A stretch of 33,577 nucleotides of DNA from Chthoniobacterales bacterium (GTDB lineage: Bacteria; Verrucomicrobiota; Verrucomicrobiia; Chthoniobacterales; UBA10450). The stretch spans positions 1 through 33,577 of the forward strand of contig DATELT010000204.1 of assembly GCA_035276245.1 (NCBI GenBank). The letters are read 5' to 3'. Each line of letters starts with the position of its first letter. Positions within the stretch are counted from its first letter, which is position 1. Below, in pieces: positions 5,937 through 28,999 of this stretch. Under the pieces are notes generated by a model that worked only from the letters and a program-made list of their open reading frames with translations, did no database searches and was not told the origin of the DNA. The translations under genes and the position numbers were made by a program.

Positions 5937-5957
5937 GAAGAGAAAGCCGAGTAGATT

Positions 5958-6030: not shown

Positions 6031-6049
6031 GAATTTGCATGCGTTTCGG

Positions 6050-6446: not shown

Positions 6447-6462
6447 TGTCACACCACGTGTA

Positions 6463-6609
6463 CTTCGACGTTCGACGTTCGGTGTTCAGCGTTCGGCGTT
6501 TACCGCGTGCCGCGTCATTAGGCGTTGGGCGTTGGGTGTTGGACGTTGGGCGTTTTCTTTTGTCGTTTTCTGTGATCGATGTTCGGCGTTCGGCGCTCGG
6601 CGTTCGATG
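6463..6609. repeat. Right-arm heptamer arrays: (C/T)GTTC(G/A)(G/A) x5, GCGTTGG x4.5, (C/T)G(T/C)TCGG x4
   Basis: 6463-6500 cttcgacgttcgacgttcggtgttcagcgttcggcgtt; 6521-6554 ggcgttgggcgttgggtgttggacgttgggcgtt; 6578-6609 gatgttcggcgttcggcgctcggcgttcgatg. The reverse complement of 6008-6028 matches 6478-6498 at 18 of 21 positions. Confidence 0.8.
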
Positions 6610-6618
6610 TTTTTGCTC

Positions 6619-9192: not shown

Positions 9193-9644
9193 GGTGATTA
9201 CGGTTATGAAGTAGATCGCACGTGCGGGCCGTTGTTGATGTATCGGATTGCGCCTTATTCGGCAAGTGATGATTACACAAAAGACGATTTCAGGCACTTG
9301 TCGTCCAGGAACTATCTGCCAGAATGCTTTGCACCGGATACTGGACTCTGGATTCTTGGTGCTGAATTAGTTTGCCGGCTGCGCCGCCCATCTTCGATAT
9401 CGGTCATAGGCCGACTGGCATTTTCGGATCGGCCGATCCACCATATTTTGCATCCCGGAATCAAGTCAGAGGGAAGCGAGCTGAAATCTCTAACGTGTGG
9501 TCCTAGCGAACCTTTCTTCTGGGGGCGTTCTCGTATTCGGGGAGGCACGTGCGCTCCCCGAACAAGATCGGGAAAGCGGCCGTCCCTTGTTTTCGCTAGT
9601 TGCGACCAAGGTGGACTGTGTTCACGGTCATTCCTCGATCGAAC

Positions 9645-10649
9645 ATGAAAACCGGCGGCAAACTTAAACTCACATTTTTCTTGCTCGGTTTCGCGGGCGC
9701 CGCGCTCTTCACTGTTCTGCTCATTCGCCAAGGGGTGATGTCGGTCGGCACCGCAGTCGCGACCGCCGGCTGGGCCGTAGTCGCGATCGCCGCGTTTCAT
9801 TTCATCCCGATTTTTCTCGATGCCACTGCCTGGTATGTCCTTTTTCCAAAGGTAGTTCGCCCGCGTCTGCAAAGTTTGTTCTGGATGCGTTGGATCGGTG
9901 AATCGATCAGCAATCTGGTTCCTTCGGCTGCGGTTGGCGGCGATATTGTCCGTGCGCGCCTCGCCACCATTACCGGCACCCCAATGGCAGCGGCCGCGGC
10001 CAGTGTGATCGTTGATGTCACATTGGGGGTTGTTGTCCAAATTGCGTTCACCCTCCTCGGTCTTGTCCTCCTGGTCCACGCCACTGGGCGAAGCAGTCTG
10101 GTCGGTCCAACATTGATCGGAGCTGTTCTGGGAGTTCTTGCCATTGCCGGCTTCTACGTCGCCCAACGACTCGGCATGTTTCGTTTTGTCAGCGTGATTA
10201 TTACCCGCCTGGTAAAATCGAAGGAGTGGAGCTCGCTCGTTCAAAGTGGTGAGACGCTGGACCAAACCGTGCGCGAAATTTATGGGCGGCGGCGCGGCGT
10301 TATCGCCTGTTGTATTGTGACGATAGCGTCGCTCATTGGTAGCTCCGGCGAGATCTATATCGCGTTAGCTGCGGTTGGCCTGCACCCGACCTTCTGGAAT
10401 GCGGTCATTCTCCAGAGCATGGCGATGACGGTGAAATCGGCGGCTTTTCCTGTTCCCGGCCAGCTTGGGGTGCAGGAAAGCGGTTACCTCGTGATCGGCA
10501 ATCTTCTTGGTATCCCGGGCGAAACCGCCTTCGCCATTTCCCTTTTGGCGCGCTTCCGCGATTTGCTCGTCGGCATTCCAGCTCTCCTTCTCTGGCAGAT
10601 AATCGAAGGCCGCCGTTTGTTGCGCGCCGAACCGGTCGCTGGCGAGTGA
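9645..10649 (+). CDS. Lysylphosphatidylglycerol-synthase-TM-domain (UPF0104 / HpnL-like) membrane protein
   Basis: Start at ATG 9645 (MKTGGKLKLTFFLLG...). There are 8 or more TMs, and the characteristic WR(W/Y)IGE.ISNLVP...GGD.VRA segment is present (WMRWIGESISNLVPSAAVGGDIVRARL). Confidence 0.75.
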   Translation: MKTGGKLKLTFFLLGFAGAALFTVLLIRQGVMSVGTAVATAGWAVVAIAAFHFIPIFLDATAWYVLFPKVVRPRLQSLFWMRWIGESISNLVPSAAVGGDIVRARLATITGTPMAAAAASVIVDVTLGVVVQIAFTLLGLVLLVHATGRSSLVGPTLIGAVLGVLAIAGFYVAQRLGMFRFVSVIITRLVKSKEWSSLVQSGETLDQTVREIYGRRRGVIACCIVTIASLIGSSGEIYIALAAVGLHPTFWNAVILQSMAMTVKSAAFPVPGQLGVQESGYLVIGNLLGIPGETAFAISLLARFRDLLVGIPALLLWQIIEGRRLLRAEPVAGE

Positions 10650-10794
10650 TAAAGTTCCGAGCCGAACCGACACAATCCCAGTGTGTCGATGGCACGACGC
10701 AAGCCTGAAGCCTGCGTGTTAGTTTTGCGTTCGAAATAAAATTGGTTCGCACATTCCACCAAATTAACGCCAAGCCAGGGCACTCGATCGCGCA

Positions 10795-11541
10795 TCAACT
10801 GGACAACGAAATAGTTTCGCCGGGTTTCATTGCCTGAATCTGCGCCTTTGAGCCAAGTTTTTTTAATTCACCGGCCAGCATCTCGGGCGTTCCCGTCAGA
10901 ACCGGGAAGGTGCCAAAGTGAATTGGGATTACAGATTTCGCCTTTACCAATTCGACAGCTCGTGCCGCGCGCGCCGGCCCCATGGTAAAATGGCCGCCCA
11001 TGCACACGAGCATCCAATCGATAGGTCGCTCGAGCGAAACCAATGCCATGTCGGAAAACAAATCGGTGTCGCCGGTGTGATAAATCGTCGGGCCGTTTCG
11101 AATCGACAAAACAACGCCGCTGGGTGTTCCGCCATAGATTGGCGGCGATTTTTCATTTGGCATAATCGCCGTGCCATGCCACGCGGGAACAAAACGGGCG
11201 GTAATTTCGCCATTGAGCACATTGATCTCGCCACCGAGATGCCCTACGAGCGAAGAATCGTCCCCTGGAAAGCCGAGCCCATTTCGTAAGGCGACTGCAA
11301 GATCAAACGTGCAGAGAAGTTTTGGTTTCGTTTTCTTGGCGATTTCCACTGAATCGCCGACGTGATCGAAGTGCCCGTGGGTGAGGCAGATTACATCCGC
11401 GCGATCTAGTTTCTTCAGTTCCTCTTCGCCTTTTTTGAACAAGGGATTTTTCAGCCACGGATCGATCAGCAAGGTCTTCCCGGAGGGCGTTTGAAGTTTG
11501 AATCCAGCATGACCGAAATAGGTGAGGTGAGTGGTTGCCAT
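10795..11541 (-). CDS. UPF0173-type metal-dependent hydrolase (MBL fold)
   Basis: The 248-aa ORF begins ...HLTYFGHAGFKLQTPSGKTLLIDPW and has the THGHFDHVGD metal motif. Length and layout are typical of the UPF0173 family. Confidence 0.85.
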   Translation of the reverse strand: MATTHLTYFGHAGFKLQTPSGKTLLIDPWLKNPLFKKGEEELKKLDRADVICLTHGHFDHVGDSVEIAKKTKPKLLCTFDLAVALRNGLGFPGDDSSLVGHLGGEINVLNGEITARFVPAWHGTAIMPNEKSPPIYGGTPSGVVLSIRNGPTIYHTGDTDLFSDMALVSLERPIDWMLVCMGGHFTMGPARAARAVELVKAKSVIPIHFGTFPVLTGTPEMLAGELKKLGSKAQIQAMKPGETISLSS

Positions 11542-11603
11542 GCTGAGGACGAAATCGAAAACGGATTACCGGGCAAGCACGAATGGCGATGGGACAATTT
11601 CAA

Positions 11604-11736
11604 TGACGAATGATGACAATCGCAGGTTAAAAAGGTTAAAAGCGTTACAAAGTTAAAAAAGAGGGATGCCGTTTTAACCGTTTAACCTTTGTAACGATTC
11701 AACTTTCTTTACGATTCGTCATTCGTGCTTCGTCAT
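11604..11736. repeat. Composite palindromic extragenic element (outer TGACGAATGA/TCATTCGTCA arms, inner GGTTAAA/GTTACAA-word core with a GTTAAAA...TTTTAAC hairpin)
   Basis: tgacgaatgatgaca at 11604-11618. The core at 11625-11696 is ggttaaaaaggttaaaagcgttacaaagttaaaaaagagggatgccgttttaaccgtttaacctttgtaacg. acgattcgtcattcgtgcttcgtcat at 11711-11736. The core recurs at 12369-12444 and the arms at 14528-14603. Confidence 0.75.
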
Positions 11737-11744
11737 TTTAGTAT

Positions 11745-12374
11745 GTGCGCATGAATCATGACGAAGCGCATCGCCACCTTTCCGCAAGCGATAGACGCTT
11801 GGCATACTTGATCTCGCATTCCCGTCGTTACGAAATTGAGCCAAATCCGAAGGTAAGAACATTTGACGCACTGGCCGAATCGATCGCTTACCAGCAACTG
11901 AGCGGTAAAGCGGCTGCCACCATTTGGAAGCGGGTGCGCGCAATTTTTCCCAAACGAAAATTTCTCGACCCCAAGTTGGTGCTGAAAACGCCGGATGAAA
12001 CATTGCGCGCGGCCGGTTTGTCGCGGAGTAAAGTCGTAGCTCTGAAAGATCTGGCGGCGAAAACGATCGACGGCACGGTGCCGACGGCGCGGGCGATGGC
12101 CAAAATGACCGACGACGAGATTGTCGAGCGGTTGATTCAGGTGCGCGGGATTGGGCGTTGGACGGTAGAAATGTTGTTGCTCTTCGATCTGGGGCGTCCA
12201 GATGTCTGGCCGGTACACGATTATGGGGTGCGCAAAGGATTCGCGAAAATTTTCGGAAAACGAAAATTGCCGACGCCGAAGCAGATGGCGAAACACGGAA
12301 AGCGATTTGCGCCATATCGCTCTGCGCTGGCGTGGTACTGCTGGAGAGCGCTGGAGGAGGCGGGGAAAAGTTAA
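11745..12374 (+). CDS. DNA-3-methyladenine glycosylase II (AlkA-like, HhH-GPD superfamily)
   Basis: 209 aa from GTG 11745, or from ATG 11751. The helix-hairpin-helix segment LIQVRGIGRWTVEMLLLF is followed by the catalytic-Asp context PDVWPVHDYGVRKG. Confidence 0.8.
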   Translation: MRMNHDEAHRHLSASDRRLAYLISHSRRYEIEPNPKVRTFDALAESIAYQQLSGKAAATIWKRVRAIFPKRKFLDPKLVLKTPDETLRAAGLSRSKVVALKDLAAKTIDGTVPTARAMAKMTDDEIVERLIQVRGIGRWTVEMLLLFDLGRPDVWPVHDYGVRKGFAKIFGKRKLPTPKQMAKHGKRFAPYRSALAWYCWRALEEAGKS

Positions 12375-12444
12375 AGGGTTAAAAATGTTACAAGGTTAAA
12401 CAGGGCGGCCGTTTTAACGATTTACCGCCTTTAACAATTTAACG
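12369..12444. repeat. Second copy of the GGTTAAA/GTTACAA-word element
   Basis: agttaaagggttaaaaatgttacaaggttaaacagggcggccgttttaacgatttaccgcctttaacaatttaacg aligns with 11625-11696 in the same orientation. It overlaps the glycosylase stop codon at 12372-12374. Confidence 0.7.
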
Positions 12445-12505
12445 TCGCGGCGAAGTCACACTTCAACGCTTGCTACCAGCGCCGCTACGACGTAAAACGC
12501 CGGAC

Positions 12506-13384
12506 ATGGCTACATTTCACATCAATCGCAGCGGTACGAGCCTCGGCACGTTTTCGGAAGATGATGTTCGGGCTGGACTTCGGAGCGGACGTTTCTTCGG
12601 GACTGATCTCGGCTGGCGTGACGGCATGGCGACGTGGCAACCGCTGGCACAAATTTCCGAATTCGCGCAAGACATCCCAGCAACGGGCGCCCCGGTTCCG
12701 CCGCCACAGGCCGCGAGTCCTGGATCAGCTCCTCCCGTCACAGTGGCGAGCGCGCGCACCGGTTTGCCGTGGGATGACCGGCAGCAAAAAGGATTTTTCA
12801 CTGCTTTTATCGAAACGCTGCAAATGGTTCTGACCCGACCAGCGGAAGCCTTCACCGTTATGAAACGCGAAGGCGGCCTGGGCGAGCCGCTCCTTTATGG
12901 AGTCGTTGGCGGAAGCGTGGGCGCGATCGTGGCATTCTTGTTTTCAATTCTCTTTCGCTCGTTCGGAATGTTTGCGGACCAGCGAAATCCGTTCAACGCG
13001 ATGGCCGGCATGGGTATTGGTTCAATCGGGTTTCTCATCCTTGCTCCGCTGGGGATCGTCATCGTCTTGTTTATTGGCGCTGCCGTTGTTCATCTGTGTT
13101 TGATGATTGTCGGAGGAGCGAACCAACCGTTTGAAACGACGTTTCGCGTCCTGGCCTTTACTCAAGGATCAACCGGCGTACTGCAATTGATTCCGGTTTG
13201 TGGCGGACTGATCGCGTCGGTGTGGGGAATCGTGGTGAATTGCATTGGCCTGGCGCGCGCCCACGAAACCGATACCGGCCGCGCCGTGCTGGCGGTCCTC
13301 CTTCCGGTGATTGTTTGCTGCGGTGGCGCAGTTGTGCTCGGCATTATGCTGGGGTTCGGCGCTTTCGGATTGCCGCACCATTAA
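12506..13384 (+). CDS. GYF_2 (DUF4339) domain plus Yip1-like multi-TM membrane protein
   Basis: Start at ATG 12506. The N-terminus MATFHINRSGTSLGTFSEDDVRAGLRSGRFFGTDLGWRDGMATWQPL follows the GYF_2 pattern. A Pro-rich linker is followed by 5 TMs with a Yip1-type layout. Confidence 0.7.
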   Translation: MATFHINRSGTSLGTFSEDDVRAGLRSGRFFGTDLGWRDGMATWQPLAQISEFAQDIPATGAPVPPPQAASPGSAPPVTVASARTGLPWDDRQQKGFFTAFIETLQMVLTRPAEAFTVMKREGGLGEPLLYGVVGGSVGAIVAFLFSILFRSFGMFADQRNPFNAMAGMGIGSIGFLILAPLGIVIVLFIGAAVVHLCLMIVGGANQPFETTFRVLAFTQGSTGVLQLIPVCGGLIASVWGIVVNCIGLARAHETDTGRAVLAVLLPVIVCCGGAVVLGIMLGFGAFGLPHH

Positions 13385-13396
13385 CTAGCGAGATTT

Positions 13397-13819
13397 ATGC
13401 AGCTTGTACGTCGGCCACTCGCCCCCGGCGAGCCGAATCATGAACTCATCTGGCTCAGTGTTTCTTCAGGCGGACTGGCGCTGGCGGCAACGTGGCTGGC
13501 CTTAAGATTGCCGTGGCCGATCTGTCTCTTTCATGCGCTCACCGGCCATCCTTGCCTCACTTGTGGTGCAACCCGATCGGCGATTGCATTTTTTCATGGG
13601 CATTTGCTAACCGCATTGCAATGGAATCCTCTCGCATTCCTTTGTTACTGCGCGCTTTCGTTGTTCAATGCCTACGCGCTTGCGACTGTCGTCATGCGCA
13701 CGCCGCGTCTGCGCGTCGCGCACGTAACCCCCGGCGAGAGGAAATTTGTTCGCGGCTCTGCTATCGCGCTGCTGGCATTGAATTGGGCCTACCTGCTGCT
13801 GGCAAATCCAACTCTCTGA
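13397..13819 (+). CDS. DUF2752 family membrane protein
   Basis: The 140-aa ORF has the family hallmark C.F...TG.PC..CG.TRS (CLFHALTGHPCLTCGATRS) and hydrophobic helices. Confidence 0.7.
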   Translation: MQLVRRPLAPGEPNHELIWLSVSSGGLALAATWLALRLPWPICLFHALTGHPCLTCGATRSAIAFFHGHLLTALQWNPLAFLCYCALSLFNAYALATVVMRTPRLRVAHVTPGERKFVRGSAIALLALNWAYLLLANPTL

Positions 13820-13832
13820 ATTAGGAGTCCGG

Positions 13833-14510
13833 TCACGGAGTCGCTTCAGTTGGCGATGTCGGTTTTGTCCGCCCCACATCATCCTCTGGCGCCCCGCGAT
13901 GTTTGGCGATGAATTCGGTGGGATTTAGCCAGCCGGCCGTATTCTCCCGATAGCCTGGTCCGATGAATGGCGTAATGAACTGGCGCATTTCAAAATGCAG
14001 ATGAGCGAAATATTGGCCGCCGGCAGTTCCAACGGTCGCGATTTTCTGGCCACGGTGCACCTCGTCGCCCGCGTGAACCAATATTTCCTGACAATGGCCG
14101 TAATAGGATTGGACGTAACGGCGCGTGCCGTTTTCCTCGATCGCGTGTAAAACAATGATAACGTTGCCCCAGCCCGGCCCGCCATCGCGCGCTAGCAAAA
14201 CGCGGCCATCCGCCACGGCATAAATCGGATCACCAAGATCGGAATTTTCACCCCCGATACCGTTAAGGTCATCGCCGAGATGATGATTTTCAGTGAAATG
14301 CTGGGCGTTATACGTGAGGGCACCGTGCTCGCTACCGAGGGGGAAATCAAAGCGCGTCGCCACCGGAAGCGACGCGAGTTCGAAGGGCGAAGGAAGTTGA
14401 AAGGCCGGGTCGAGATGGGTGGGTCGAGTGAGCTCGGGCATGAGGCGCCAGATCAATGCTGCAAGTGCGCCGAGAACAAATAAGGCCAGGCAAAGGGCGA
14501 GCCGTTTCAT
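13833..14510 (-). CDS. M23 family metallopeptidase (LytM-like)
   Basis: Signal or anchor MKRLALCLALFVLGALAAL; HxxxD context HHLGDDLNG; PIYAVADGRV; HLHFE motif. Confidence 0.85.
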   Translation of the reverse strand: MKRLALCLALFVLGALAALIWRLMPELTRPTHLDPAFQLPSPFELASLPVATRFDFPLGSEHGALTYNAQHFTENHHLGDDLNGIGGENSDLGDPIYAVADGRVLLARDGGPGWGNVIIVLHAIEENGTRRYVQSYYGHCQEILVHAGDEVHRGQKIATVGTAGGQYFAHLHFEMRQFITPFIGPGYRENTAGWLNPTEFIAKHRGAPEDDVGRTKPTSPTEATP

Positions 14511-14527
14511 GTTAAGCGTTCGCTAGG

Positions 14528-14603
14528 TGACGAAGCACGAATGACGAATGACAAAGTAAGAGAGAGAGCCACCGCGCAAGCATTCGTCATTAAGGGTTCG
14601 TCA
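14528..14603. repeat. Palindromic element with GACGAAGCACGAATGACGAATGAC arms
   Basis: The left arm 14528-14553 is the reverse complement of 11714-11736 (gattcgtcattcgtgcttcgtca). The right arm 14581-14603 is cattcgtcattaagggttcgtca. It lies in the divergent spacer between the M23 peptidase and epimerase genes. Confidence 0.7.
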
Positions 14604-14653
14604 TTTATGCGGCTTCGGTTGGCAAGCGCCGCCTACGAAACTAAGCTCGCCTC

Positions 14654-15601
14654 GTGCGCATTCTCGTTACCGGTGGCGCTGGATTTATCGGTTCGCATTT
14701 GGTCGAAAAACTACTCGCTCTCGGGCATGGCGTCGCGGTTCTCGATGATTTCAACGATTTTTATGATCCGCGAATCAAACATGGCAACATCGCCGCCGTG
14801 AAAAATGATGTGCCGGTTTTTCAAATGGATCTGCGCGATAACAATGCCGTGCGTAGTCTGTTTCATCGGGAGAAATTCGATGCCGTCGCGCATTTGGCGG
14901 CGCGTGCCGGGGTACGTCCATCCATTGCCCAGCCGCAGCTTTATTATGATGCCAACGTAAACGGGACACTTCATTTGCTCGACGCGGCCCGCACGGCCGA
15001 AATCGAGCGTTTCATTTTTGCCTCGAGTTCGTCGGTCTACGGAATCTGTAAGGACGTTCCATTTTCAGAGGATTTTCACCTTACCCAAACCATCAGTCCG
15101 TACGCCGCCACCAAAATTGCTGGCGAATTTCTTTGCTCGACATTCTCACACCTCTACCAGATGCGGGCGGTGGCGCTGCGTTTTTTTACGGTTTACGGAG
15201 CGCGGCAACGTCCCGATCTGGCGATCCATCAATTCACTCGTAGGATTTTAGCCGGCCAGGCCATCGATCAATTCGGCGATGGCACGACTCGGCGCGATTA
15301 CACTTACATTGACGACATTATTCAAGGCGTGATTGCAGCGCTGAATTACGACGGCGCGAGGTGGGACATTTTTAATCTCGGGGAAAGCGAAACCGTGCCA
15401 TTGAAGGATCTGATCGAAGCGGTCGAAACTGCGGTTGGAAAAAAGGCAAAGATCAACCGGTTGCCGGAACAGCCGGGTGACGTGCCGCTGACGTGCGCCG
15501 ATATTTCGAAAGCTCGTCGGCTCCTTGGTTACAATCCAGCCACGAAATTGCGCGACGGTTTGCCGAAGTTCGTTGAATGGTTTCGGGCCCAGCAACAATG
15601 A
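14654..15601 (+). CDS. NAD-dependent nucleotide-sugar epimerase (extended SDR, UDP-glucuronate 4-epimerase-like)
   Basis: GTG start at 14654. Motifs: TGGAGFIGSH Rossmann, catalytic YAATK, and GDGTTRRDYTYIDDII, which is typical of this subfamily. Confidence 0.9.
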   Translation: MRILVTGGAGFIGSHLVEKLLALGHGVAVLDDFNDFYDPRIKHGNIAAVKNDVPVFQMDLRDNNAVRSLFHREKFDAVAHLAARAGVRPSIAQPQLYYDANVNGTLHLLDAARTAEIERFIFASSSSVYGICKDVPFSEDFHLTQTISPYAATKIAGEFLCSTFSHLYQMRAVALRFFTVYGARQRPDLAIHQFTRRILAGQAIDQFGDGTTRRDYTYIDDIIQGVIAALNYDGARWDIFNLGESETVPLKDLIEAVETAVGKKAKINRLPEQPGDVPLTCADISKARRLLGYNPATKLRDGLPKFVEWFRAQQQ

Positions 15602-16611
15602 ACCTGCCATTTGCGCAGCGCGCCTGTTTTGCCGCGGGCCAGGCCAAATCGGGGACAACCCTGCTCATCGCTCTGCTCGACGGGCATCGGCAGCTGCTCG
15701 TGTTACCCGAGGAAACTGCCTATTTCCCGACCGCTCTTAATAAGTACGAGAAATTCGGCCGCCGGGCACAGGTTGATTATTTGACCAAAGAAGCCCTATC
15801 CCGCGTTCTTTTCGGCGGACCGCCGGAGTGGGAAAAAGCGGATTACGGCCATTTTCCGACAGGCCAGTTCCGCGAACGCTTCGAAGCTGCTGCGTTCGAC
15901 CCGAATAATTCAGACAAGGATTTGCTGGTATTGCTGATGGAGACGTATGCGGAGATTCTAGGGATTCCGCTCGACTTGATTGTGCGGTGGGTGGAAAAAA
16001 CGCCAGCTAATCGCCGTTTCATTCCGCAGATTTTGGAGCGGTTTCCGCAGACAAAGTTTTTGATAACCATGCGCGATCCGCGGGCGATCCTGGCCGCGCA
16101 GATCGCTCTCGAGAAGATGCGGAAAACGCGGGAGTTTTCGGTTTACTATTGCGTCTCTCATTGGCTCCAAGCCGCCAAACTTGCCTTGCGCGCGGAACGA
16201 AAGGAACTTTCGGGCATCGTAATCCGTTACGAGGATTTGGTCGCCGACCCGGCCGCTCCGATGCAACGGGTCTGCGATTTCCTGGAAATATCGTTTGATC
16301 GCAATGTTGTCTTAACGCCGACAAAGGCGGGAAAATTCTGGGCCGGAAACTCGGCGACTGAGCGCGAATTCACCCGCGTAAGCGAGGAACGGGCAGGTAG
16401 TTGGCAAAACGAATTGTCGGTGGACGAAATTGGCTGGGTGGAATGGCATTGCCGGGAGCTGATGGCACATTTTGGCTATACTCCGCGAAGTTCGCACCGG
16501 AGGTTGTTGCACCATTGGGCGAGACCGATCCGGCAGGAACGTCCGAAGCAGTATTTTAAGTCCCGTTATTACTCAATCAGGGACAACTTGCTCGGACCGC
16601 GCAATAAGTGA
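15598..16611 (+). CDS. Sulfotransferase family protein
   Basis: The ATG at 15598 overlaps the epimerase stop (ATGA). The 5'-PSB loop is GQAKSGTTLL and a 3'-PB-like element is ITMRDPRAILAAQ. Confidence 0.8.
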   Translation: MNLPFAQRACFAAGQAKSGTTLLIALLDGHRQLLVLPEETAYFPTALNKYEKFGRRAQVDYLTKEALSRVLFGGPPEWEKADYGHFPTGQFRERFEAAAFDPNNSDKDLLVLLMETYAEILGIPLDLIVRWVEKTPANRRFIPQILERFPQTKFLITMRDPRAILAAQIALEKMRKTREFSVYYCVSHWLQAAKLALRAERKELSGIVIRYEDLVADPAAPMQRVCDFLEISFDRNVVLTPTKAGKFWAGNSATEREFTRVSEERAGSWQNELSVDEIGWVEWHCRELMAHFGYTPRSSHRRLLHHWARPIRQERPKQYFKSRYYSIRDNLLGPRNK

Positions 16612-21046: not shown

Positions 21047-21523
21047 TTACCCGGGATCCGAATCTGTCGCCGGAATTTCGTGGCGATGGTGTCCGTCGTG
21101 TTCGGCTTTTAAGCGGAGCCGTTCGAATTGCTTCTCCAGCTTCTCAAGATCTTCGTCTGAAAGTTTTTCTAGATCGACAAGTTCATTGCGTGCGTTTTTG
21201 AGGGCGCGAATGACTTCATCCAGCTTCAGTTGCATCGCTTTGGAATCGCGGTTCTGCGTGTTTTGGATTAGGAAGACCATCAGGAAAGTGACAATGGTCG
21301 TACCCGTATTAATAATGAGCTGCCAAGTGTCGGAAAAGTGGAAGGCGGGACCGGTCAACCCCCAGGTGACAATGATTGCAATGGCAATGGCAAACGCCCA
21401 CGCGCTCCCGAGAATTAACGAAGATTTTCGTGCGAAGATGCGGAAGACATCGCGCACGACACCGACGGGACGACGTCTGGCTTCCTCTTCTTTCAATCTT
21501 TGCTTTTGTGTTTCCAGCGCCAT
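21047..21523 (-). CDS. Low-affinity iron permease (Fet4-like) family membrane protein
   Basis: The 158-aa ORF has the segment FSDTWQLIINTGTTIVTFLMVFLIQNTQNRDSKAMQLKLDEVIRAL, which matches the conserved core of that family as I recall it. Confidence 0.65.
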   Translation of the reverse strand: MALETQKQRLKEEEARRRPVGVVRDVFRIFARKSSLILGSAWAFAIAIAIIVTWGLTGPAFHFSDTWQLIINTGTTIVTFLMVFLIQNTQNRDSKAMQLKLDEVIRALKNARNELVDLEKLSDEDLEKLEKQFERLRLKAEHDGHHRHEIPATDSDPG

Positions 21524-21650: not shown

Positions 21651-22499
21651 GTGATGGACGCAAGTGAAGTTCATCTCGATCTCGACAATGCATGGCGAGA
21701 GATCGCAGACGATTTGCCGAAGATTGATGCCACGAAATGGGGACCACACCTCCGTTTTTCCACTTCGCCCCGAGTAGTCGAACAATTTTATCGCGAGATT
21801 CAGCCGCATTTCAGCAAATTCGTTCTCTATGGCTCCGGCGACTTTCATCACCTGACCGCTCTGTGGCTTCGACGCATCCACGAACCGATCACGCTGGTTT
21901 CGTTTGATAACCATCCGGACTGGGATGTTCGTCCGCCGCGCTGGTGTTGCGGCGGCTGGATCAATCGCGCACTTGAATTGCCGCACGTCCGGCAGGCGAC
22001 AATTTGGGGGTGCGGAAATTTCGAGTGCTGGTGGCCGCATCAAATTTTTGGCAATCGCAAAGCGGAACGCGCCGGGACGCTTATCGTCCATCCGTGGGCG
22101 GACGATCGGCCACCGAGCGCACAAAAACGAAACGGCGCGATTTTGCGCAAGAATTGGCGGGAACAATTCGAAAAATTCGCGAACGAACTGATCGGCTCGA
22201 ACATTTACATTACGATCGATCTGGATTGCTTGGCGTCGGATTACTCCTGCACAAATTGGGAAAGCGGAAGGTTTGATCTCGATGACGTTAGGTGGGGACT
22301 GGAGACGCTGAGGCACCACGCTCATGTCCTGGGAGGAGACATTTGCGGCGCTTATTCCCCGCCGGCCTACGCGCGAAGGAAGCAACGATTCGCGTCGGAA
22401 ATAGATCATCCAAAATTGAATTTTCCAGCGCCGGAAAAGATTCGTGCGCTTAATCAGCGCGCGTTCGAAGCGCTTTGGCCGGTGTTAACGTGTCGATAG
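21651..22499 (+). CDS. Arginase/ureohydrolase-fold family protein (divergent)
   Basis: 282 aa from GTG 21651, or from ATG 21654. Motifs appear in the right order for the arginase fold: GSGDFHH, FDNHPDW, ITIDLDCLASDY, GGDICGAYSP. Confidence 0.55.
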   Translation: MMDASEVHLDLDNAWREIADDLPKIDATKWGPHLRFSTSPRVVEQFYREIQPHFSKFVLYGSGDFHHLTALWLRRIHEPITLVSFDNHPDWDVRPPRWCCGGWINRALELPHVRQATIWGCGNFECWWPHQIFGNRKAERAGTLIVHPWADDRPPSAQKRNGAILRKNWREQFEKFANELIGSNIYITIDLDCLASDYSCTNWESGRFDLDDVRWGLETLRHHAHVLGGDICGAYSPPAYARRKQRFASEIDHPKLNFPAPEKIRALNQRAFEALWPVLTCR

Positions 22500-22591: not shown

Positions 22592-22924
22592 CTAGCTTAA
22601 CGAGACCATTACAACGCCACCACTGATCAACGCGGCGCCAAAAAGAAGACGCGGCGTTAATTTCTCCCGCAAAATCACTGACGCCAAAATGCTGATGATG
22701 ACCACGCTCAATCCCTGAAAAGGGTAAAGATAGCTCAGGTCGAAACGTTGGAGTAATCCAAGCGTAATAAAAAATGAAAAGGTCATCGTCGCCAGACCTG
22801 CTCCGAAAAATTTCGCGAATCGGTCACTGCCAAGATCGCTTTCCATCGCATGCTTGAGGAAGAGTTGGCCGAGAATGTAAAGAATCAGCGCAACGAAAAT
22901 GAGCAATGCCGAAACAAGGGTCAC
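22592..22924 (-). CDS. Small 4-TM DMT/SMR-like half transporter (ArnE/ArnF-sized), subunit 2
   Basis: 110 aa with four hydrophobic helices. Its start overlaps the upstream stop by 4 nt. Confidence 0.7.
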   Translation of the reverse strand: MTLVSALLIFVALILYILGQLFLKHAMESDLGSDRFAKFFGAGLATMTFSFFITLGLLQRFDLSYLYPFQGLSVVIISILASVILREKLTPRLLFGAALISGGVVMVSLS

Positions 22925-23328
22925 AATTTTTCCTCCATTCGTGCAACCGGTTTAGCCACGATAAGAACTCCGATCAGAACCAGCGCGATCCCACACCAGC
23001 GTTGGGTGGAAATGATTTCACCGAGAAAAACCCACGAGCTTAACGGGATCAGCACGTGAACAAAATTGGAGAGGGGATAGGCGATGGTCAGTGGAATGAA
23101 ACGCAGGACGTAGAGCCAGCTGATGAAACTCGCGATCACGAACAAGATCCCGTACCAGACATTGGCCGAGGCGAGGCCGGAAACGCCGGTCCAGTTCACT
23201 TCGGCCGGCAAACGCGGCGCTTCGACTGCGCCACGCTTAAGGAAGAGTTCCGAAGTTGTAACTAAGAGCACGGTGAGACAAAGCTGAAACCACGGATTGA
23301 GCAAAACCTTCTTAGCTTTTTGAATCAT
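22921..23328 (-). CDS. Small 4-TM EamA-like half transporter (ArnE/ArnF-sized), subunit 1
   Basis: 135 aa with four helices and an EamA-like end, GEIISTQRWCGIALVLIGVLIV. It has 4-nt overlaps with both neighbouring genes. Confidence 0.7.
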   Translation of the reverse strand: MIQKAKKVLLNPWFQLCLTVLLVTTSELFLKRGAVEAPRLPAEVNWTGVSGLASANVWYGILFVIASFISWLYVLRFIPLTIAYPLSNFVHVLIPLSSWVFLGEIISTQRWCGIALVLIGVLIVAKPVARMEEKL

Positions 23329-24515
23329 CGGAAAAGGTGCCGGTGACTCCGCAGCACTGGATCAGTGCGAGTTGGTTCGAAAACGCGAGCGAATGCCTTG
23401 ATAAACGGGTTAAGCAGGGGCGACGTGTGTTTCACATAAACGTCCACCGCTTGCGGTTCAAGCCGCAGACGCAGTTTCGCATCGTAATTAAACGGCGCGC
23501 TAGCATAGCGATGCAAGCCGTTCGCCAGCGCCCAATTCAGTAGATCACGAAACGTGACATAATACAGATTCAGTTCATATGCGACAGAGTAGTCCAACCC
23601 GATATCATTGTCGTAGAGCGTTCCATCCCAGATGGTGCAAAAGCTGAACGCCACCGCACGCGAACCCTGGCGCCAGATGAAATAGCGGAATTTTCCGGGC
23701 GCGCTGCGACCCGCCTCCAGAAAGTATTCGCGAGTGAAAATCTCGAACTGGATCGCGCTGGTCTCCGCCACCGCGAGGTAGAGTGGATAAATTTCGTCGA
23801 TGATCTGCTCGGCGTCAGTCCAGACTTCGAAACTAATCACGGGCGAGGCACTGTCCGCGGCACGAAATTTTCGACGCAAATTCTTCCGGGTCGCCCGGCT
23901 TAGTTGCTTCGTCGCATACTCTTCGAAGGAAGCGAAATTGAGATCGAGGATTAATGGTGGAAATCCGTTTACGCGGACGTAGCCGGTCTGCTTGAGACTG
24001 GAAAAAGCGGAACGCGTTTTGGCGGGGAAGTCCTTGAACCCTACCAGTCTAATTCCAACGCTGTCGGCATACGTTTCGATGGCTTCGGCGACGAGTGGGG
24101 CCGTGGTTTCAGCCGATTCCACGGTGCCCATTTTTCCTTCACCTACAAGACAGCCCGCCAACGCAATGCGGCTTTTCAAAAAGTGCGGCCAGTGCGTCCG
24201 CAATTTCCCCACAAGTCGCGCAACGCTTGCACCTGCAGAAATAGCGAGGTCCTGACGGGCAAGAAGGAGTGGTTGCAGTGCAAGCGGTCGATCATTTTCG
24301 TCGAACACGAGCAGGTATCGGTAATCAAAACCCCACCTCATCGTCTGCTCGATCAAGTCGTAATATTGAAAATCTTTCCAGCTGTCGGAAAAACCGCGCT
24401 CCCAGAATCCCATTGGGACATCGCGAGCGTGATTAAAGACGAGCACCTGGCCGTGCGAAAGGGCAAGGGCGGGAGTTCGCGTGTCGGATAACGTGCACGC
24501 AAGCTGAGTCGTCAT
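23325..24515 (-). CDS. FemAB-like / BioF2-like (Acetyltransf_6-type) GNAT acyltransferase, paralog 2
   Basis: 396 aa. It is collinear with the upstream paralog through shared blocks: GC..GEG..G, KDF..K.R.A.S, L.L.F..F..Y, R.TRKNLRRKFR, YPLYLAV.E.S...FE..T.EY, FRYFIWR, LGLDYSVA..L.LY, Y.S.P.NYD.KL.L, EPTR.DPVL. Confidence 0.65.
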   Translation of the reverse strand: MTTQLACTLSDTRTPALALSHGQVLVFNHARDVPMGFWERGFSDSWKDFQYYDLIEQTMRWGFDYRYLLVFDENDRPLALQPLLLARQDLAISAGASVARLVGKLRTHWPHFLKSRIALAGCLVGEGKMGTVESAETTAPLVAEAIETYADSVGIRLVGFKDFPAKTRSAFSSLKQTGYVRVNGFPPLILDLNFASFEEYATKQLSRATRKNLRRKFRAADSASPVISFEVWTDAEQIIDEIYPLYLAVAETSAIQFEIFTREYFLEAGRSAPGKFRYFIWRQGSRAVAFSFCTIWDGTLYDNDIGLDYSVAYELNLYYVTFRDLLNWALANGLHRYASAPFNYDAKLRLRLEPQAVDVYVKHTSPLLNPFIKAFARVFEPTRTDPVLRSHRHLFR

Positions 24516-25672
24516 CCGTAAAGTTCGGCGGCGTTGGCGAATTTCGGCAGCACGGGATCGTGTCGCGTCGGCTCAAGCAACTTCACCACGCGGCTAAAAA
24601 TGGCATTCAAGAGCGGCTGAGTGTGTCTCACATAAAGATCGAGTGGTGCCAGATCGCAACCCAGATGCAGCTTCGGATCGTAATTGAGCGGACTGCTGCA
24701 ATAGAAGGTCAGATGGTGATCAATCGCCCAGCGCAGGATGTCGCGCAGGGTGTAAAAATAGAGATGCAAATCGAGCGCGACCGAATAGTCCAGGCCAAGA
24801 TATTCGTCGTAGATCGTGCCGCCGTGGACCATGCAAATGCTGAAAGCAATGATGCGCCGATCGAGGCGCCAGATAAAAAAGCGGACACGTTCCGGCATGA
24901 GCTGACCGAGCTTCGCCAGGTATTCCTTGGTCAGCTTTTCGAATTTCATCGGCGACCGCTCGTGCACCGCCAGGTAAAGCGGGTACACCTCGTCCAGATA
25001 TGGCGTGATATCGCTAACGATTTCGAGATCGATCTTGGCGGCGCGTTCGGTTTTGCGAAATTTCCGCCGCAAACTCTTGCGCGTGCCATAGCTTAAATGC
25101 GCGAGATAATCGTCAAAGTCGCGAAAATTCAGCGCCAGCCGGGTCATTGGCATGCTTGGGACGCGGGTAAAGTCATTGCCTGAAAATCCGGAGAGTGCAT
25201 CCCGGTATTTGGAAGAGAAATCTTTGAGAACGATTAGTGAGGCTCTGGCCCTACGTGCGATCTGCGGCAGGCAGGCGTGCAATGCTTCGGCGATCCAGGC
25301 AGAATCCTTCGAAGCGAGGGCGCCGAGATGCCCTTCTCCAGCGGCACAGCCGACCATTAGTACACGCATCGTTAGAAACCTTGGAAACTGTCTGCGAATC
25401 GCGTCAACCATGCGTCGGACTCCGCCGGGAATTCCTTCGATCAGGTTTTGCTGGACGAAAAAGAAAGGCTGAATGCCGCGGACGTTGCCGGAGAGATCTC
25501 GCAGGATCAAATATTGGTACTCGAAATCGTTCGCCAGCGTGTCTTCGATGATTTCATAGAAGCGATGATCCTTGCAACAATCCCGAAAAGCGTTACGCCA
25601 GTCTTCGTATTGCTGGAGTTCGCCCCGTGAGACGACGGCAGCGCTCCCCTCTTTAAAAGGAAACGTTGCCAT
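24512..25672 (-). CDS. FemAB-like / BioF2-like (Acetyltransf_6-type) GNAT acyltransferase, paralog 1
   Basis: 386 aa with the same block structure as paralog 2. It starts 3 nt after the MscS-like stop and overlaps paralog 2 by 4 nt. Confidence 0.65.
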   Translation of the reverse strand: MATFPFKEGSAAVVSRGELQQYEDWRNAFRDCCKDHRFYEIIEDTLANDFEYQYLILRDLSGNVRGIQPFFFVQQNLIEGIPGGVRRMVDAIRRQFPRFLTMRVLMVGCAAGEGHLGALASKDSAWIAEALHACLPQIARRARASLIVLKDFSSKYRDALSGFSGNDFTRVPSMPMTRLALNFRDFDDYLAHLSYGTRKSLRRKFRKTERAAKIDLEIVSDITPYLDEVYPLYLAVHERSPMKFEKLTKEYLAKLGQLMPERVRFFIWRLDRRIIAFSICMVHGGTIYDEYLGLDYSVALDLHLYFYTLRDILRWAIDHHLTFYCSSPLNYDPKLHLGCDLAPLDLYVRHTQPLLNAIFSRVVKLLEPTRHDPVLPKFANAAELYG

Positions 25673-25675
25673 CTC

Positions 25676-26800
25676 TTACGCGCCGTCCGCCACCGGGCGC
25701 TCCGGCTTTGTCTTCGGCCCTGTGAGTTCGACCCGCACGAACCCTTCGCGGAAATTGATGTCACGCTGTGGACTTGGAATCTCAATGCCGACTTCACGCA
25801 ACTTCCGCGCGATCGCGAAATTCAAATCGCTACGGAATCGGCGCGGCCGATAACTCATTTCCCGGCTCCAGACTACCAGTTCCAAATTGACCGAGCTTTC
25901 CCCGAAAGTCTCCAAAAATACAGTTGGCTCCGGCTCGTGTAACACATGGGAATCCTCTCGAGCGACTTCAAGCAGAGCGTCTCGCACTTTGTCCAGATCG
26001 CTGCCGTAGGCGACGCCCACCGGAATGCGAAACCGCACTCGCGGGTCGCCGTAAGTCCAATTCGTGACCGGTGAATCAATGAACTTCGTGTTCGGCACGA
26101 TCATGGTGATGTTGTCGTTGGTAAGAATGACAGTGCTGCGTGCGCGAATTTGCTGCACCTGGCCGGCAATACCCGCAACCTCTACACGATCGCCGATGGT
26201 GATCGGTCGTTCTGCCAAAATGACAAGACCACTAATGAAATTGCTGGCGATATTTTGCAGCCCAAAGCCGATGCCGACACCGACTGCGCCGGCAAAAACG
26301 GCGAGAGTGGCAAGGTGAATGCCGGCGTTGTCCAGGACAATGAAAATGCCGACAACGAGGACGACATTGCTGACGATTTGCGAGACGGCATATTGTAGCG
26401 ACCGATCGAGGCCGCTGTTTACAAGGAAGCGGTTAAAGAGAAATGATTTTGTCCGCGCCGATACCCAAAAGACTCCGAGGAGGAGAGCGACGAGCAGAAA
26501 AATCTGGACGAGCGTGAGCGCGATGCCAGGCAACGGTTGATTCCAAGCCAGCGGAATGCCTGCCGCGTTGATGGCGGTGACTGTGAAAAATATCAGTGTG
26601 ACAGCGCTGAAGATTGCTGGGATGACGGAGACGAAATTCTTGCCGAGTTTGAGTCGGGTAAGGAAACGCCGGAACGACTCACTTTGAAATAGTCTTGCCA
26701 GCGATAATCCGGCTCCAAAGAACACCGCAAACGCAATCAGGCCGGCGGCTGTAATGTAATTGCTGCCGACGTGAAATAGCGGTTCAGTTAGGTACTGCAC
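25676..26800 (-). CDS. Mechanosensitive ion channel family protein (MscS-like)
   Basis: GTG start at 26800. N-terminal TMs are followed by the pore helix and beta-domain motif, GLQNIASNFISGLVILAERPITIGDRVEVAGIAGQVQQIRARSTVILTNDN. Confidence 0.85.
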   Translation of the reverse strand: MQYLTEPLFHVGSNYITAAGLIAFAVFFGAGLSLARLFQSESFRRFLTRLKLGKNFVSVIPAIFSAVTLIFFTVTAINAAGIPLAWNQPLPGIALTLVQIFLLVALLLGVFWVSARTKSFLFNRFLVNSGLDRSLQYAVSQIVSNVVLVVGIFIVLDNAGIHLATLAVFAGAVGVGIGFGLQNIASNFISGLVILAERPITIGDRVEVAGIAGQVQQIRARSTVILTNDNITMIVPNTKFIDSPVTNWTYGDPRVRFRIPVGVAYGSDLDKVRDALLEVAREDSHVLHEPEPTVFLETFGESSVNLELVVWSREMSYRPRRFRSDLNFAIARKLREVGIEIPSPQRDINFREGFVRVELTGPKTKPERPVADGA

Positions 26801-26940
26801 TCTCTACACTGTGATTGCACGGGCGCGGCGCAACCAAAAACACGTGGCTCGCTATCTTGCGGATAATGCACCGGGCTGCCATTGACTAGCGCCATTGGCG
26901 CAAGCAGCCAAAGCTTTAATATCAGGCCGCCAGTGGGCTT

Positions 26941-27195
26941 CTACCCTTCCTTCGGCTTCGCCCGTTCCTGGATGTATTTGATGACGTCGCCGACCGTTTG
27001 CAACTTCTCGGCGTCCTCATCGGGCACCTCTACCGAAAATTCCTCCTCGAACGCCATCACCAGCTCCACGATGTCCAGTGAGTCCGCCCCCAAATCTTCG
27101 ATGAATGAAGCCTGCGGCGTCACCTGTTCGGGGTTAACACCGAGTTGTTCGACGATGATGTCCTTAACCTTCTCTTCGATTGATTTGTCGGCCAT
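26941..27195 (-). CDS. acpP: Acyl carrier protein
   Basis: Start at ATG 27195 ([20 protein letters not shown]...). The phosphopantetheine attachment site is [19 protein letters not shown]. Confidence 0.9.
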
Positions 27196-27478
27196 AAAAT
27201 TTCGGTTTGTTCCGTCCGCCGCGATAACGCGGGCTGAACACGTTGGCAAGTAAAACAATTCAAATTCTTGTCAACGAATTTCAAGTAATCGGAGAGCAAT
27301 CGAATTCAATCCAAGCGCTGCCGCGCCGTCCCGAACCGGGCAGAGATGAGCGACCTCTCAAATGGATAATGTTCTTGAGCGATGGGAGATCTTTCGCCGT
27401 CTTCACGGGCTCAGAATGACAAGGAATGAAGGCGACTGACGAGTGTTCACAAACGCTTCGGTTTTACTTCTCTGGTTC

Positions 27479-28999
27479 ATGCAGTACATGAGAAGTGTGC
27501 CATCGGCTGGCGAACCGCTTGATCTGATTGACCTGAAGTTTCTTCCCGCATGGGTGAAGGAAGATTGGTCTGCTCCGCGGCGTGCCGAATGGGAAGAAGA
27601 CCAGGAACCGTGGCCTCGCGGTGGCGAGCAGCGGCGTGATCGTCCACCTCGGCTGCCGCGTCGCGAACAAAAGAACCGCGGCCGGCGTGATCGGCGATCG
27701 CGCGACGAGCGCAAAATGCCGGACCGCAAAGATAGGAAACGTTCTGGCGATTTTCCTGCGCGACGCGAAGCACCTCCTCCGCCGCCGTTGCCACAGCTCG
27801 ATGTTCATTTTCTTCCGCAGGCAGCGGCCTTCGAAAATGTCGCAGCTCAGATTAAATCTGGTACGGTCGCATATTCTGTTTATGCGCTGGCTCGCCTCTT
27901 TTTGCAGAAACCCGAGCGTTACAACGTTAGGGTGAAAACGAAGGACGCGCGTCCACTTTTCCGTCTCGGCGAATCGAACGGAGTATCGACAAATCGCACC
28001 GCGCTCGAGGACTCCGCCTTTCGCCTGATGCGAGAAAAATTTTACGAGACTAAGGTGACTTTGAATGATCCAATCAAGGGCGACTTTAATAGCGTCGCAC
28101 GGGACCGTACGACCGGAACATTGCTCGGGCCGACCAACCACCACAGCTACCAGCCGCAACTCCGGCGCCTTTATGAGCAACGCTTCAGCCGGCGCATGAG
28201 TTTTCTCGATTTCCAACGGCAGATCGAAAACGTCAGCGATCCCGCGCTGGTCGAGCAATGGAAGGAGGAAGCGCGCAAGGTGACTACGTTTGCCACTCGC
28301 CAGGAAACACCGGCTCAGACTTTCAACACCGAGGCTGAGGCGGAACGCCATTTTCGCGAGAAATATTTGCCCCCTCTCATCGCTGAGACGCCGGAAGCGG
28401 AGATCGACGGCGTCACCAGTCGACGCTTGCCGGACCGCGGAATCGCGCGCCTGATCGAGAATGGGTGGTCGGCGGAAGTCCGCTCGCCTTCAAGCATGAT
28501 GCAGGAGCTGACCGGCCGATTTCGCGGCACCGGCCTGCAAATTTTTCGTCATCGTAAAGGGATGCTTTTCGTTTCGCCTATTCGGTTAAAACCGATCAAC
28601 GAATCCGCGGTCTCGGATTCGGTCCGTCAGATTCTGGAAACGCTTAAAGCTTCACCGCGAATGAATCGCAAAGAGCTGGCCGAGAAATTGATCGCGCCGG
28701 AGACAGGGCCGGCCGAAGCTGAGAAAACGAAATTGTCCCTCGCCTCCGACTTGCACTGGATGATCCGAGAGGGTCACGTCATTGAATTCAACGACGGTTC
28801 GCTCGACCTGCCCCGAGCTAAACCAGCGAAGAAGGAAGCGAGTGAAGCCGCGTCGAATCTGCCGCCGGAAATGGCAATCGAGCCAAATGTAAAAGAGATG
28901 GTCGTCGCGGAACAGCCAGTCCTCGTAGAGGAGGCACCGCCTTCTATACCCGGTATCCCGAGCGAAGTCGAGGCAGCCCGTGGCGAGACGAGCAGTTAG
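27479..28999 (+). CDS. Hypothetical protein with an Arg/Asp/Glu-rich low-complexity N-terminal region
   Basis: ORF 27443..28999; the ATG at 27479 is preferred and the exact start is uncertain. Residues around 40-110 read RRAEWEEDQEPWPRGGEQRRDRPPRLPRREQKNRGRRDRRSRDERKMPDRKDRKRSGD. I recognise no domain in the remainder. Confidence 0.55.
   Translation: MQYMRSVPSAGEPLDLIDLKFLPAWVKEDWSAPRRAEWEEDQEPWPRGGEQRRDRPPRLPRREQKNRGRRDRRSRDERKMPDRKDRKRSGDFPARREAPPPPPLPQLDVHFLPQAAAFENVAAQIKSGTVAYSVYALARLFLQKPERYNVRVKTKDARPLFRLGESNGVSTNRTALEDSAFRLMREKFYETKVTLNDPIKGDFNSVARDRTTGTLLGPTNHHSYQPQLRRLYEQRFSRRMSFLDFQRQIENVSDPALVEQWKEEARKVTTFATRQETPAQTFNTEAEAERHFREKYLPPLIAETPEAEIDGVTSRRLPDRGIARLIENGWSAEVRSPSSMMQELTGRFRGTGLQIFRHRKGMLFVSPIRLKPINESAVSDSVRQILETLKASPRMNRKELAEKLIAPETGPAEAEKTKLSLASDLHWMIREGHVIEFNDGSLDLPRAKPAKKEASEAASNLPPEMAIEPNVKEMVVAEQPVLVEEAPPSIPGIPSEVEAARGETSS

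Follow-up and report, generated by a model that had tools for sequence, protein, structure and literature searches.

The conserved core of a gene cluster in a Chthoniobacterales genome (GenBank assembly GCA_035276245.1, contig DATELT010000204.1, whose 33,577 nucleotides (nt) are referred to as the window) comprises a tandem-GNAT transferase, a predicted heterodimer of ArnE/ArnF-like EamA half transporters and an arginase-fold gene, here called ArgL. The module probably builds and flips an envelope molecule in bacteria that are abundant in soil, and its reading as a split MprF/Arn-like system, making a product inside the cell and flipping it outward, is held with slightly better than even confidence. 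The logic of a synthase, a flippase and a hydrolase is already known from MprF and Arn; no characterised system of this composition was found in the literature, in agreement with an earlier reading of the DNA made without database searches (hereafter the sequence-only reading).

On the minus strand of the window, acpP extends from 27195 (ATG) to 26941 (TAG) and encodes 84 amino acids (aa) according to the open reading frame (ORF) listing and the strand sequence. A spacer of 140 nt separates it from the MscS-like gene (26800, GTG, to 25676, TAA; 374 aa), which is followed after a 3-nt gap (25675-25673, GAG) by GNAT1 (25672-24512, 386 aa), GNAT2 (24515-23325, 396 aa), EamA-A (23328-22921, 135 aa) and EamA-B (22924-22592, 110 aa, GTG start). 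ArgL (21654-22499, 281 aa) lies on the plus strand, convergent with EamA-B. The tight five-gene packing, the 3-nt gap and the position of acpP 140 nt upstream, all described in the sequence-only reading, are borne out by the ORF table and the sequence, as is the detachment of acpP from fab genes, none of which occurs among the window ORFs scanned. The sole descriptive error concerned the overlaps, given as three ATGA junctions: GNAT1/GNAT2 (24515-24512) and GNAT2/EamA-A (23328-23325) do read ATGA, while the 4-nt EamA-A/EamA-B overlap (22924-22921) reads GTGA because the start codon of EamA-B is GTG. Four-nucleotide overlaps are ordinary in operons, and the feature that rises above chance is the retention of the arrangement across other genomes. 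Judged by that measure, the interpretation built on the packing holds in part. One functional unit of transferase and half transporters is supported by adjacency over deep divergence and by fusions in at least seven clades, while the five-gene composition does not hold and ArgL had been overlooked; the five-gene packing of one genome overstates the true functional unit.

Conservation was assessed in 172 loci obtained from contig look-ups, a scan covering each GTDB species with a single genome, and a search of metagenomes that started from an intermediate clade, all annotated with phmmer and jackhmmer starting from the window proteins. The genome scan, for which the GNAT1 plus GNAT2 alignment A1 served as query, yielded Chthoniobacterales alone, all at 62% identity or higher, and is therefore no test of deep conservation; the distant contexts derive from a further protein search, contig look-ups and the metagenome search. 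GNAT1 is the core synthase, found in every related locus collected. Of the 128 loci with at least 1.3 kb of downstream sequence, 117 carry two EamA units after the transferase, and L021 and L105 carry a single one. The transferase with two EamA genes persists at about 30% identity, in relatives named Candidatus Omnitrophota where labelled. The carriers are Chthoniobacterales, mainly soil metagenome-assembled genomes (MAGs), and Omnitrophota-type contigs, including some from groundwater metagenomes.

Fusions of the transferase to an EamA half, 509-558 aa in length, occur in at least seven separate places of the neighbour-joining (NJ) tree of the family and, among the assembled loci, in L005, L024, L058, L087, L089 and L090. 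GNAT2 is fused as well, with 538-aa GNAT2::EamA proteins in P0230, P0233, P0235, P0236 and locus L005, the fused half being EamA-A. This Rosetta-stone pattern gives the strongest evidence for a substrate shared by the transferase and the half transporters. Conserved adjacency and recurrent fusions also rule out the view that the two small proteins are ordinary paired small multidrug resistance (SMR) drug exporters with an independent distribution, an outcome that the sequence-only reading had named as fatal to its proposal. Two further fusions were observed: P0456 (683 aa) joins an alpha/beta hydrolase to the transferase, and P0245 (552 aa) carries a DUF4118 membrane domain in place of the EamA half.

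Both transferases are assigned by profile scores to the COG3146 / PF04339 (FemAB_like, DUF482) / PF13480 (Acetyltransf_6, BioF2-like/CelD-type) family. For PF13480, scored on the second GNAT repeat with a gathering cut-off of 22 bits, GNAT1 reaches 48.1 and GNAT2 46.1 bits; against PF04339 (cut-off 27 bits) GNAT1 scores 45.3 bits and GNAT2 23.9 bits, slightly below the cut-off, and a precomputed PF04339 match is present on many GNAT2 orthologues. Of the subfamilies proposed beforehand, PF13480 thus applies to both proteins and PF04339 also to GNAT1 above its cut-off, while TIGR03019, the PEP-CTERM-associated FemAB-related family, is discarded, neither GNAT having an NCBIfam match to it at E <= 0.01. 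Homologues of GNAT1 exceed 6000 at the level of 90%-identity clusters (E <= 1e-5; 8000 candidates scored), and an exhaustive search of 50%-identity representatives returned 2653 relatives, 190 of them below 1e-30. The best 120 homologues are at least 64% identical and their names, where given, read Verrucomicrobiota, Chthoniobacterales or "predicted N-acyltransferase"; the closest public relatives of the window are soil Verrucomicrobiota/Chthoniobacterales MAGs, with 93% identity in the GNAT1 protein. The COG3146/PF04339 family also includes plant plastid homologues.

The literature reports no function for COG3146, PF04339 or DUF482, and no functional characterisation was found for PF13480 relatives, for At2g23390, or for combinations of ArnE/F with an acyltransferase or of FemAB with EamA. 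The GNATs therefore do not fall into a family with a known unrelated role, which had been raised as a possible objection. An earlier prediction for COG3146, as a pterin-dependent enzyme, was experimentally invalidated (PMC3223725), and a phosphonate antibiotic cluster contains a weak COG3146 match (PMC8976061). A further source names a plant homologue an acyl-CoA N-acyltransferase in its title and abstract (PMC4488762).

Sequence searches of the PDB with the GNATs, both as single sequences and as a profile, returned nothing meaningful, and only structure comparison was informative. The AlphaFold2 (AF2) model of GNAT1, built from 25 homologues, reached a predicted local distance difference test (pLDDT) score of 89.6 and a predicted template modelling (pTM) score of 0.87 and displays a tandem-GNAT fold. 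Foldseek ranked Weissella FemX first, followed by the Sbb17/Sba18 peptide synthases and then by the catalytic domains of alanyl- and lysyl-phosphatidylglycerol synthases (A-PGS, L-PGS) and MprF, with E-values from 5e-13 (FemX) to 1e-10 across these groups, all of them transferases that use aminoacyl-tRNA. FemX structures occupy ranks 1-6 (E about 1e-12, template modelling (TM) scores 0.56/0.63), with alignments spanning both repeats. Within the helix at residues 195-211 of GNAT1, R198, K199, R202, R203, K204 and R206 are invariant in alignment A1. R198 is also invariant in A3 and is the only one of these six basic residues to remain near-invariant in the wider 43-sequence alignment A2. K334, towards the C-terminal end of the second GNAT repeat, is invariant in both A1 and A2. 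Aminoacyl-tRNA (aa-tRNA) transferases commonly possess a catalytic lysine or arginine and a positively charged helix for binding of the tRNA acceptor stem (PMC6103681); the basic helix and K334 are consistent with such an enzyme, a suggestive feature rather than proof.

The kinship with the Fem transferases (FemX, FemA/B, MurM) and Sbb17/Sba18 thus consists of top structural rank, shared PF13480 and PF04339 at Pfam clan level, and, suggestively, the basic helix with an invariant lysine near the C-terminus of the second repeat. It does not extend to sequence, as the FemX equivalog NF047883 (cut-off 500 bits) gave 16.1 bits for GNAT1 and no match for GNAT2, nor to context, the neighbours here being a transporter pair and an arginase-like gene instead of a cell-wall or antibiotic cluster. 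A further rival account is a branch of peptidoglycan-precursor synthesis, in which a Fem-type enzyme would aminoacylate lipid II or another undecaprenyl-diphosphate-linked precursor with the EamA pair as auxiliary flippase. The structural rank of FemX and the Pfam label of PF04339, "peptidoglycan biosynthesis/recognition", speak for it, as do polysaccharide/peptidoglycan deacetylases and a LysM amidase downstream of the module in L086 and a divergent PMT_2::Polysacc_deac_1 gene in L087. These cell-wall neighbours, however, are confined to single loci, no mur, fts or pbp genes adjoin the module, either in the window or elsewhere in the survey, and the FemX score is negligible against its cut-off, which makes this explanation highly improbable.

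Among the closest known parallels are MprF and the aminoacyl-phosphatidylglycerol synthases (aaPGS), which share the tandem-GNAT catalytic fold (Foldseek E about 1e-10, TM-score 0.5-0.6) and its coupling, often by fusion, to a membrane translocator. MprF operons also contain accessory hydrolases (PMC6103681), paralleled here by ArgL, by alpha/beta-hydrolase neighbours and by the single hydrolase fusion. The likeness stays at the level of fold: there is no sequence-level similarity, and no Pfam match to PF09924 (LPG_synthase_C / DUF2156) was obtained for the GNATs at E <= 0.01. The architecture also differs, with no transmembrane domain N-terminal of the GNATs; the translocator consists of two halves of four transmembrane helices (4-TM) at or after the C-terminus, the relatives bearing a C-terminal 4-TM EamA half, whereas MprF has an N-terminal domain of 6-14 helices. 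The ornithine-lipid synthases OlsBA, OlsF and OlsHI were considered as the identity of the system and rejected; OlsB and OlsF are not known to be tandem-GNAT/COG3146 enzymes. A 2026 review describes these three ornithine-lipid pathways, with OlsH and OlsI being GH3-like and alpha/beta-hydrolase proteins (PMC12971839).

GNAT2, 41% identical to GNAT1, was considered as a recent tandem duplicate and rejected as such because it forms a separate old paralogous clade in the NJ tree. Each copy keeps all family-invariant residues, and both are therefore probably active. GNAT2 is present in 39 of the 172 loci and absent from 133, making it an optional accessory transferase and not a fixed partner of GNAT1.

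EamA-A and EamA-B match PF00892 above its cut-off (30.5 and 34.6 bits) and contain four hydrophobic segments each, as expected of 4-TM halves. Among NCBIfam models, EamA-A scores 44.1 bits with ArnF (cut-off 99) and 37 bits with ArnE (cut-off 92), and EamA-B 33.7 bits with ArnE (cut-off 92). Across 18 halves from close and distant loci, ArnE is the best model in 18/18 and ArnF in 17/18, all far under the equivalog cut-offs, with only sporadic weak matches to models of SMR drug, polyamine and guanidinium exporters. Six columns are invariant in these halves, namely K31 (the TM1 lysine), L75, L102, E104 (before TM4), G113 and G120. A TM1 glutamate conserved in both protomers was not found in the 18 halves; the polar position of TM1 is Glu in the A halves of Chthoniobacterales only and Gln elsewhere. 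The TM1 motif GQLxxK presumably resembles that of Escherichia coli ArnE.

The charge distribution of the halves bears on their topology. In EamA-B, Lys and Arg residues are concentrated in loops 1 and 3 (0 vs 5 in the window, 0-1 vs 4-9 in orthologues), and the A halves are nearly neutral in this respect, for example 5 vs 3. The fusion of EamA-A to the transferase C-terminus places its N-terminus in the cytoplasm by inference, and an antiparallel heterodimer, with EamA-B in the opposite orientation, is predicted because the B half is strongly biased and the A half, where joined to a cytoplasmic transferase, would have to be N-in. Lipid-flipping SMRs such as ArnE/F often lack the central Glu, and paired SMRs show opposite Lys/Arg bias (PMC9574504). 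The paired exporters EbrAB, MdtIJ and YkkCD/Gdx share with the module adjacent small 4-TM genes, a 4-nt overlap and a predicted antiparallel heterodimer.

ArnE/ArnF (PmrM/PmrL), the lipid-SMR flippase of undecaprenyl-phosphate-linked 4-amino-4-deoxy-L-arabinose, is therefore matched in the arrangement of two adjacent 4-TM genes of about 110-135 aa, in the best named models and in the lack of a conserved central TM1 glutamate. It is not matched in score (44 vs 99 and 34 vs 92 bits), in genomic context, or in the obligatory partner of the module, a tandem-GNAT transferase that is often fused to the A half. No arnA, arnB, arnC, arnD or arnT gene occurs among the window ORFs scanned, and no arnBCADT-type operon was found in the gene tables of 12 loci (L001-L005, L086-L092). 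Within these tables only L087 comes close, with a divergent PMT_2::polysaccharide-deacetylase fusion (4929-6773) beside its GNAT::EamA-EamA-ArgL genes that is reminiscent of ArnT plus ArnD.

The main rival account concerns the cargo. The transferase would N-acylate or aminoacylate a small amine or guanidino compound, such as agmatine, arginine or a polyamine derivative, ArgL would remove an amidino group, and the EamA pair would export the soluble product in the manner of MdtIJ, Gdx or EamA-type exporters. Proteins of the EamA/drug-metabolite transporter (DMT) class and paired SMRs mostly carry small solutes, with polyamine (MdtIJ) and guanidinium (Gdx) subtypes described (PMC9574504), and some halves do give weak MdtI, EbrA/B and EmrE matches. 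The arginase/agmatinase fold of ArgL fits such a route, and the aminotransferase, haloacid dehalogenase (HAD) phosphatase, alpha/beta hydrolase and AMP-ligase neighbours of L087, L089 and L092 resemble small-molecule metabolism. Against this stand the ArnE/ArnF models, which in all 18 halves score above each of the SMR and metabolite-exporter models, and the central TM1 Glu needed by proton-coupled SMRs, which is not conserved in both halves. No Rfam family, including guanidine or other riboswitches, was found in the window. The pair is moreover tied to a transferase that in many relatives is covalently tethered to one half and whose nearest structural relatives act on lipid or lipid-linked acceptors, and a membrane substrate fits this better. 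Export of a soluble metabolite is accordingly regarded as rather unlikely.

ArgL completes the conserved unit and is a more faithful partner of the module than MscS or acpP. It is present in 92 of the 111 loci with enough downstream sequence, in three arrangements; in L098, L100 and L105 it shares the strand of the transferase, follows it immediately and overlaps it, and in L105 (5924-9048) the transferase stands between a fatty-acid desaturase and this arginase-like gene. The match to PF00491 (17 bits, E 0.0044) falls under the gathering score of 22. A profile of 22 ArgL orthologues nevertheless retrieves plant arginases and an agmatinase from the PDB at E 0.003-0.009, with the DxHxD and DxD motifs aligned to their counterparts in agmatinase 3lhl and in the arginases 6vsu and 6vss, and GSGDFHH aligned weakly to the GGDH-type region. 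GSGDFHH, FDxHPDW and DxDC are invariant in all 22 orthologues, including the distant L087 copy at 31% identity. Because the profile alignments span the metal motifs and these motifs are invariant, ArgL is treated as a divergent metallohydrolase of the arginase/agmatinase fold. Compared with arginase, agmatinase and formiminoglutamase ureohydrolases, it keeps the metal-motif correspondence and departs in its sub-threshold Pfam score and in the additional invariant motifs NWE and DHP, which mark a distinct subfamily.

The two remaining upstream genes behave differently. The acpP product scores 117 bits with TIGR00517 (cut-off 70) and 126 bits with NF002148 (cut-off 71) and is, on these matches, a canonical housekeeping acyl carrier protein (ACP) and a synteny neighbour. 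The MscS-like protein, which bears extra N-terminal transmembrane helices, matches PF21088 (26 bits), PF00924 (72.5 bits) and PF21082 (65.8 bits), all above Pfam cut-offs. Both genes accompany the module only where the wider housekeeping synteny of rpmB, PhoU, PHO4, HflX and MiaA is kept. In the 124 loci with upstream sequence available, MscS is adjacent in 88 and an ACP is present in 105. Within the Chthoniobacterales synteny group itself MscS is lost from L035, L065, L067 and L138, and it is separated from GNAT1 in several others. An antisense response regulator and sensor kinase lie between the two genes in L057 (4477-6173), L129 (5257-6903), L141 (5278-6834), L142 (3357-5099) and L157 (about 5300-6918), and other inserts occur in L074, L081 and L155. 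By eye alone, the N-terminus of the inserted sensor kinase looks DUF4118-like. Neither ACP nor MscS is adjacent in any of the Omnitrophota-type loci, and in L086, L088, L091 and L092 both are missing from the flanking sequence retrieved. A separate pair of ketosynthase (KS) and ACP genes lies about 5 kb from the module in L087, and an MscS-like gene lies about 4 kb upstream in L089.

These observations bear on a model that extends the sequence-only reading, a machine of fixed stoichiometry made of acpP, MscS, two GNATs and two half transporters, with acyl-ACP as donor and MscS in a structural or regulatory role. It draws on the 3-nt MscS-GNAT1 gap, on the ACP-MscS-GNAT1 order of most Chthoniobacterales loci and on the KS-ACP and MscS-like genes near the modules of L087 and L089. 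It is countered by the dependence of ACP and MscS on housekeeping synteny, by the missing MscS genes and the two-component inserts in at least five loci, by distant modules lacking both genes, by the absence of GNAT2 from most loci, by the housekeeping score of the ACP and by the variable acpP-MscS spacer. Such a fixed machine is improbable. MscS is probably co-transcribed with GNAT1 in this verrucomicrobial lineage, given the 3-nt gap, yet MscS and acpP are lineage-specific neighbours and not obligatory components, and MscS-GNAT-GNAT-EamA-EamA does not survive as a conserved unit, with GNAT2 optional and MscS and acpP confined to the Chthoniobacterales synteny block.

The length of the spacer between acpP and MscS varies among relatives, from 140 to about 400 nt. 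A block of about 43 nt (26801-26843, minus strand), directly upstream of the MscS GTG, is nearly invariant in seven related loci, and the remaining spacer varies in length and sequence; the conserved block beside a variable spacer would fit a transcription start of their own for MscS and the downstream genes, and the block is a possible promoter or 5' leader. Promoter and terminator scans performed at chance level and called no consensus promoter or terminator at 26801-26843, and the spacer folded no better than shuffled sequences (z 0.78). A GCGCC-AAT-GGCGC hairpin after the acpP stop codon is mostly conserved and may be a non-canonical terminator.

In the mechanism proposed for the transferase, the half transporters and ArgL, the transferase would act at the inner face of the membrane, covalently tethered to EamA-A in many relatives. 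It would transfer an aminoacyl or acyl group onto an acceptor that is amphiphilic and anchored in the membrane, for example a phospholipid head group or a sugar or peptide linked to polyprenyl phosphate. The EamA-A/EamA-B pair would then move the product to the outer leaflet, and ArgL might edit or recycle a guanidino or amide group that belongs to the head group or to its precursor. From the fold neighbours and the basic helix, the most likely donor would be aminoacyl-tRNA. An acyl-thioester or adenylate donor is kept open because acyl-activation genes recur nearby, namely acpP here, KS-ACP in L087 and a PaaK-like AMP-ligase near the module in L089 and L090. A more specific version, in which a tRNA-dependent tandem GNAT aminoacylates a membrane lipid or polyprenyl-phosphate-linked sugar, possibly with arginine, an antiparallel ArnE/ArnF-type heterodimer flips it and ArgL converts or trims the guanidino head group, for example from arginyl to ornithyl, is considered quite unlikely as it stands.

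Several points weigh against the make-inside, flip-outward reading. Nine loci of an intermediate clade, L093-L097, L102 and L103 (P0243-led query, 51-86%), L163 and L169 (46%), carry the transferase with neither EamA nor ArgL; in L169 an ABC ATPase and ABC-2 permease pair (4785-6914) lies immediately upstream of the transferase instead of an EamA pair. The co-occurrence counts are conditional on loci chosen by their transferase and are phylogenetically non-independent. In the Foldseek list that FemX heads, acyl-CoA tandem GNATs (the clavulanate tandem GNAT, Eis and N-myristoyltransferase) appear lower down, and the acyl-activation neighbours could point to a thioester or adenylate donor rather than aa-tRNA. 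EamA/DMT proteins mostly carry soluble metabolites, as opposed to the lipid-linked acceptor proposed here. The single-sequence AF2 model of ArgL has a pLDDT of 40 and is unusable for its fold, and the literature holds no biochemical data for any COG3146/PF04339 member.

The genes that recur beside distant modules hint that the pathway may be longer in those lineages. In L087, the stretch 9881-15270 encodes DUF347, a class-III aminotransferase, a HAD phosphatase, an alpha/beta hydrolase, an ACP and a ketosynthase, and the aminotransferase-hydrolase-HAD trio also stands directly upstream of the transferase in L092.

In the window itself, a low-affinity iron permease (PF04120, 176 bits; 21047-21523, minus strand) adjoins ArgL and is found again close to the module in most Chthoniobacterales loci, probably through synteny only. 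On the other flank, an ORF of 518 aa (U518; 27443-28999, plus strand), with no Pfam or NCBIfam match and an N-terminal third rich in Arg, Glu and Lys, is divergent from acpP; it occupies the same position in nearly all Chthoniobacterales loci and tracks the synteny block. Farther away, an NDP-sugar epimerase/dehydratase (PF16363, PF01370) followed by an overlapping sulfotransferase (PF13469) at 14654-16611 on the plus strand may represent a sulfated-glycan pair. Two DUF6268 paralogues lie on the minus strand at 2997-3872 and 8263-9297, each with an unannotated ORF beside it (upstream; 3876-4877 and 9312-10265), and an ABC-2 permease and an SCP2 protein are located between the two sets.

The significance of the module rests in part on its family. 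COG3146/PF04339 is large and has no assigned function, and conserved adjacency together with recurrent fusions provides a testable hypothesis of a synthase, a translocator and a head-group editor. If the module does modify an envelope lipid or glycolipid, it would represent a new modify-inside, flip-outside solution beside MprF and Arn, with a bearing on surface charge and on resistance to antimicrobial peptides or stress. Should the arginyl version be true, Chthoniobacterales and Omnitrophota would possess a new way of making cationic envelope lipids, and COG3146/PF04339 would gain its first function.

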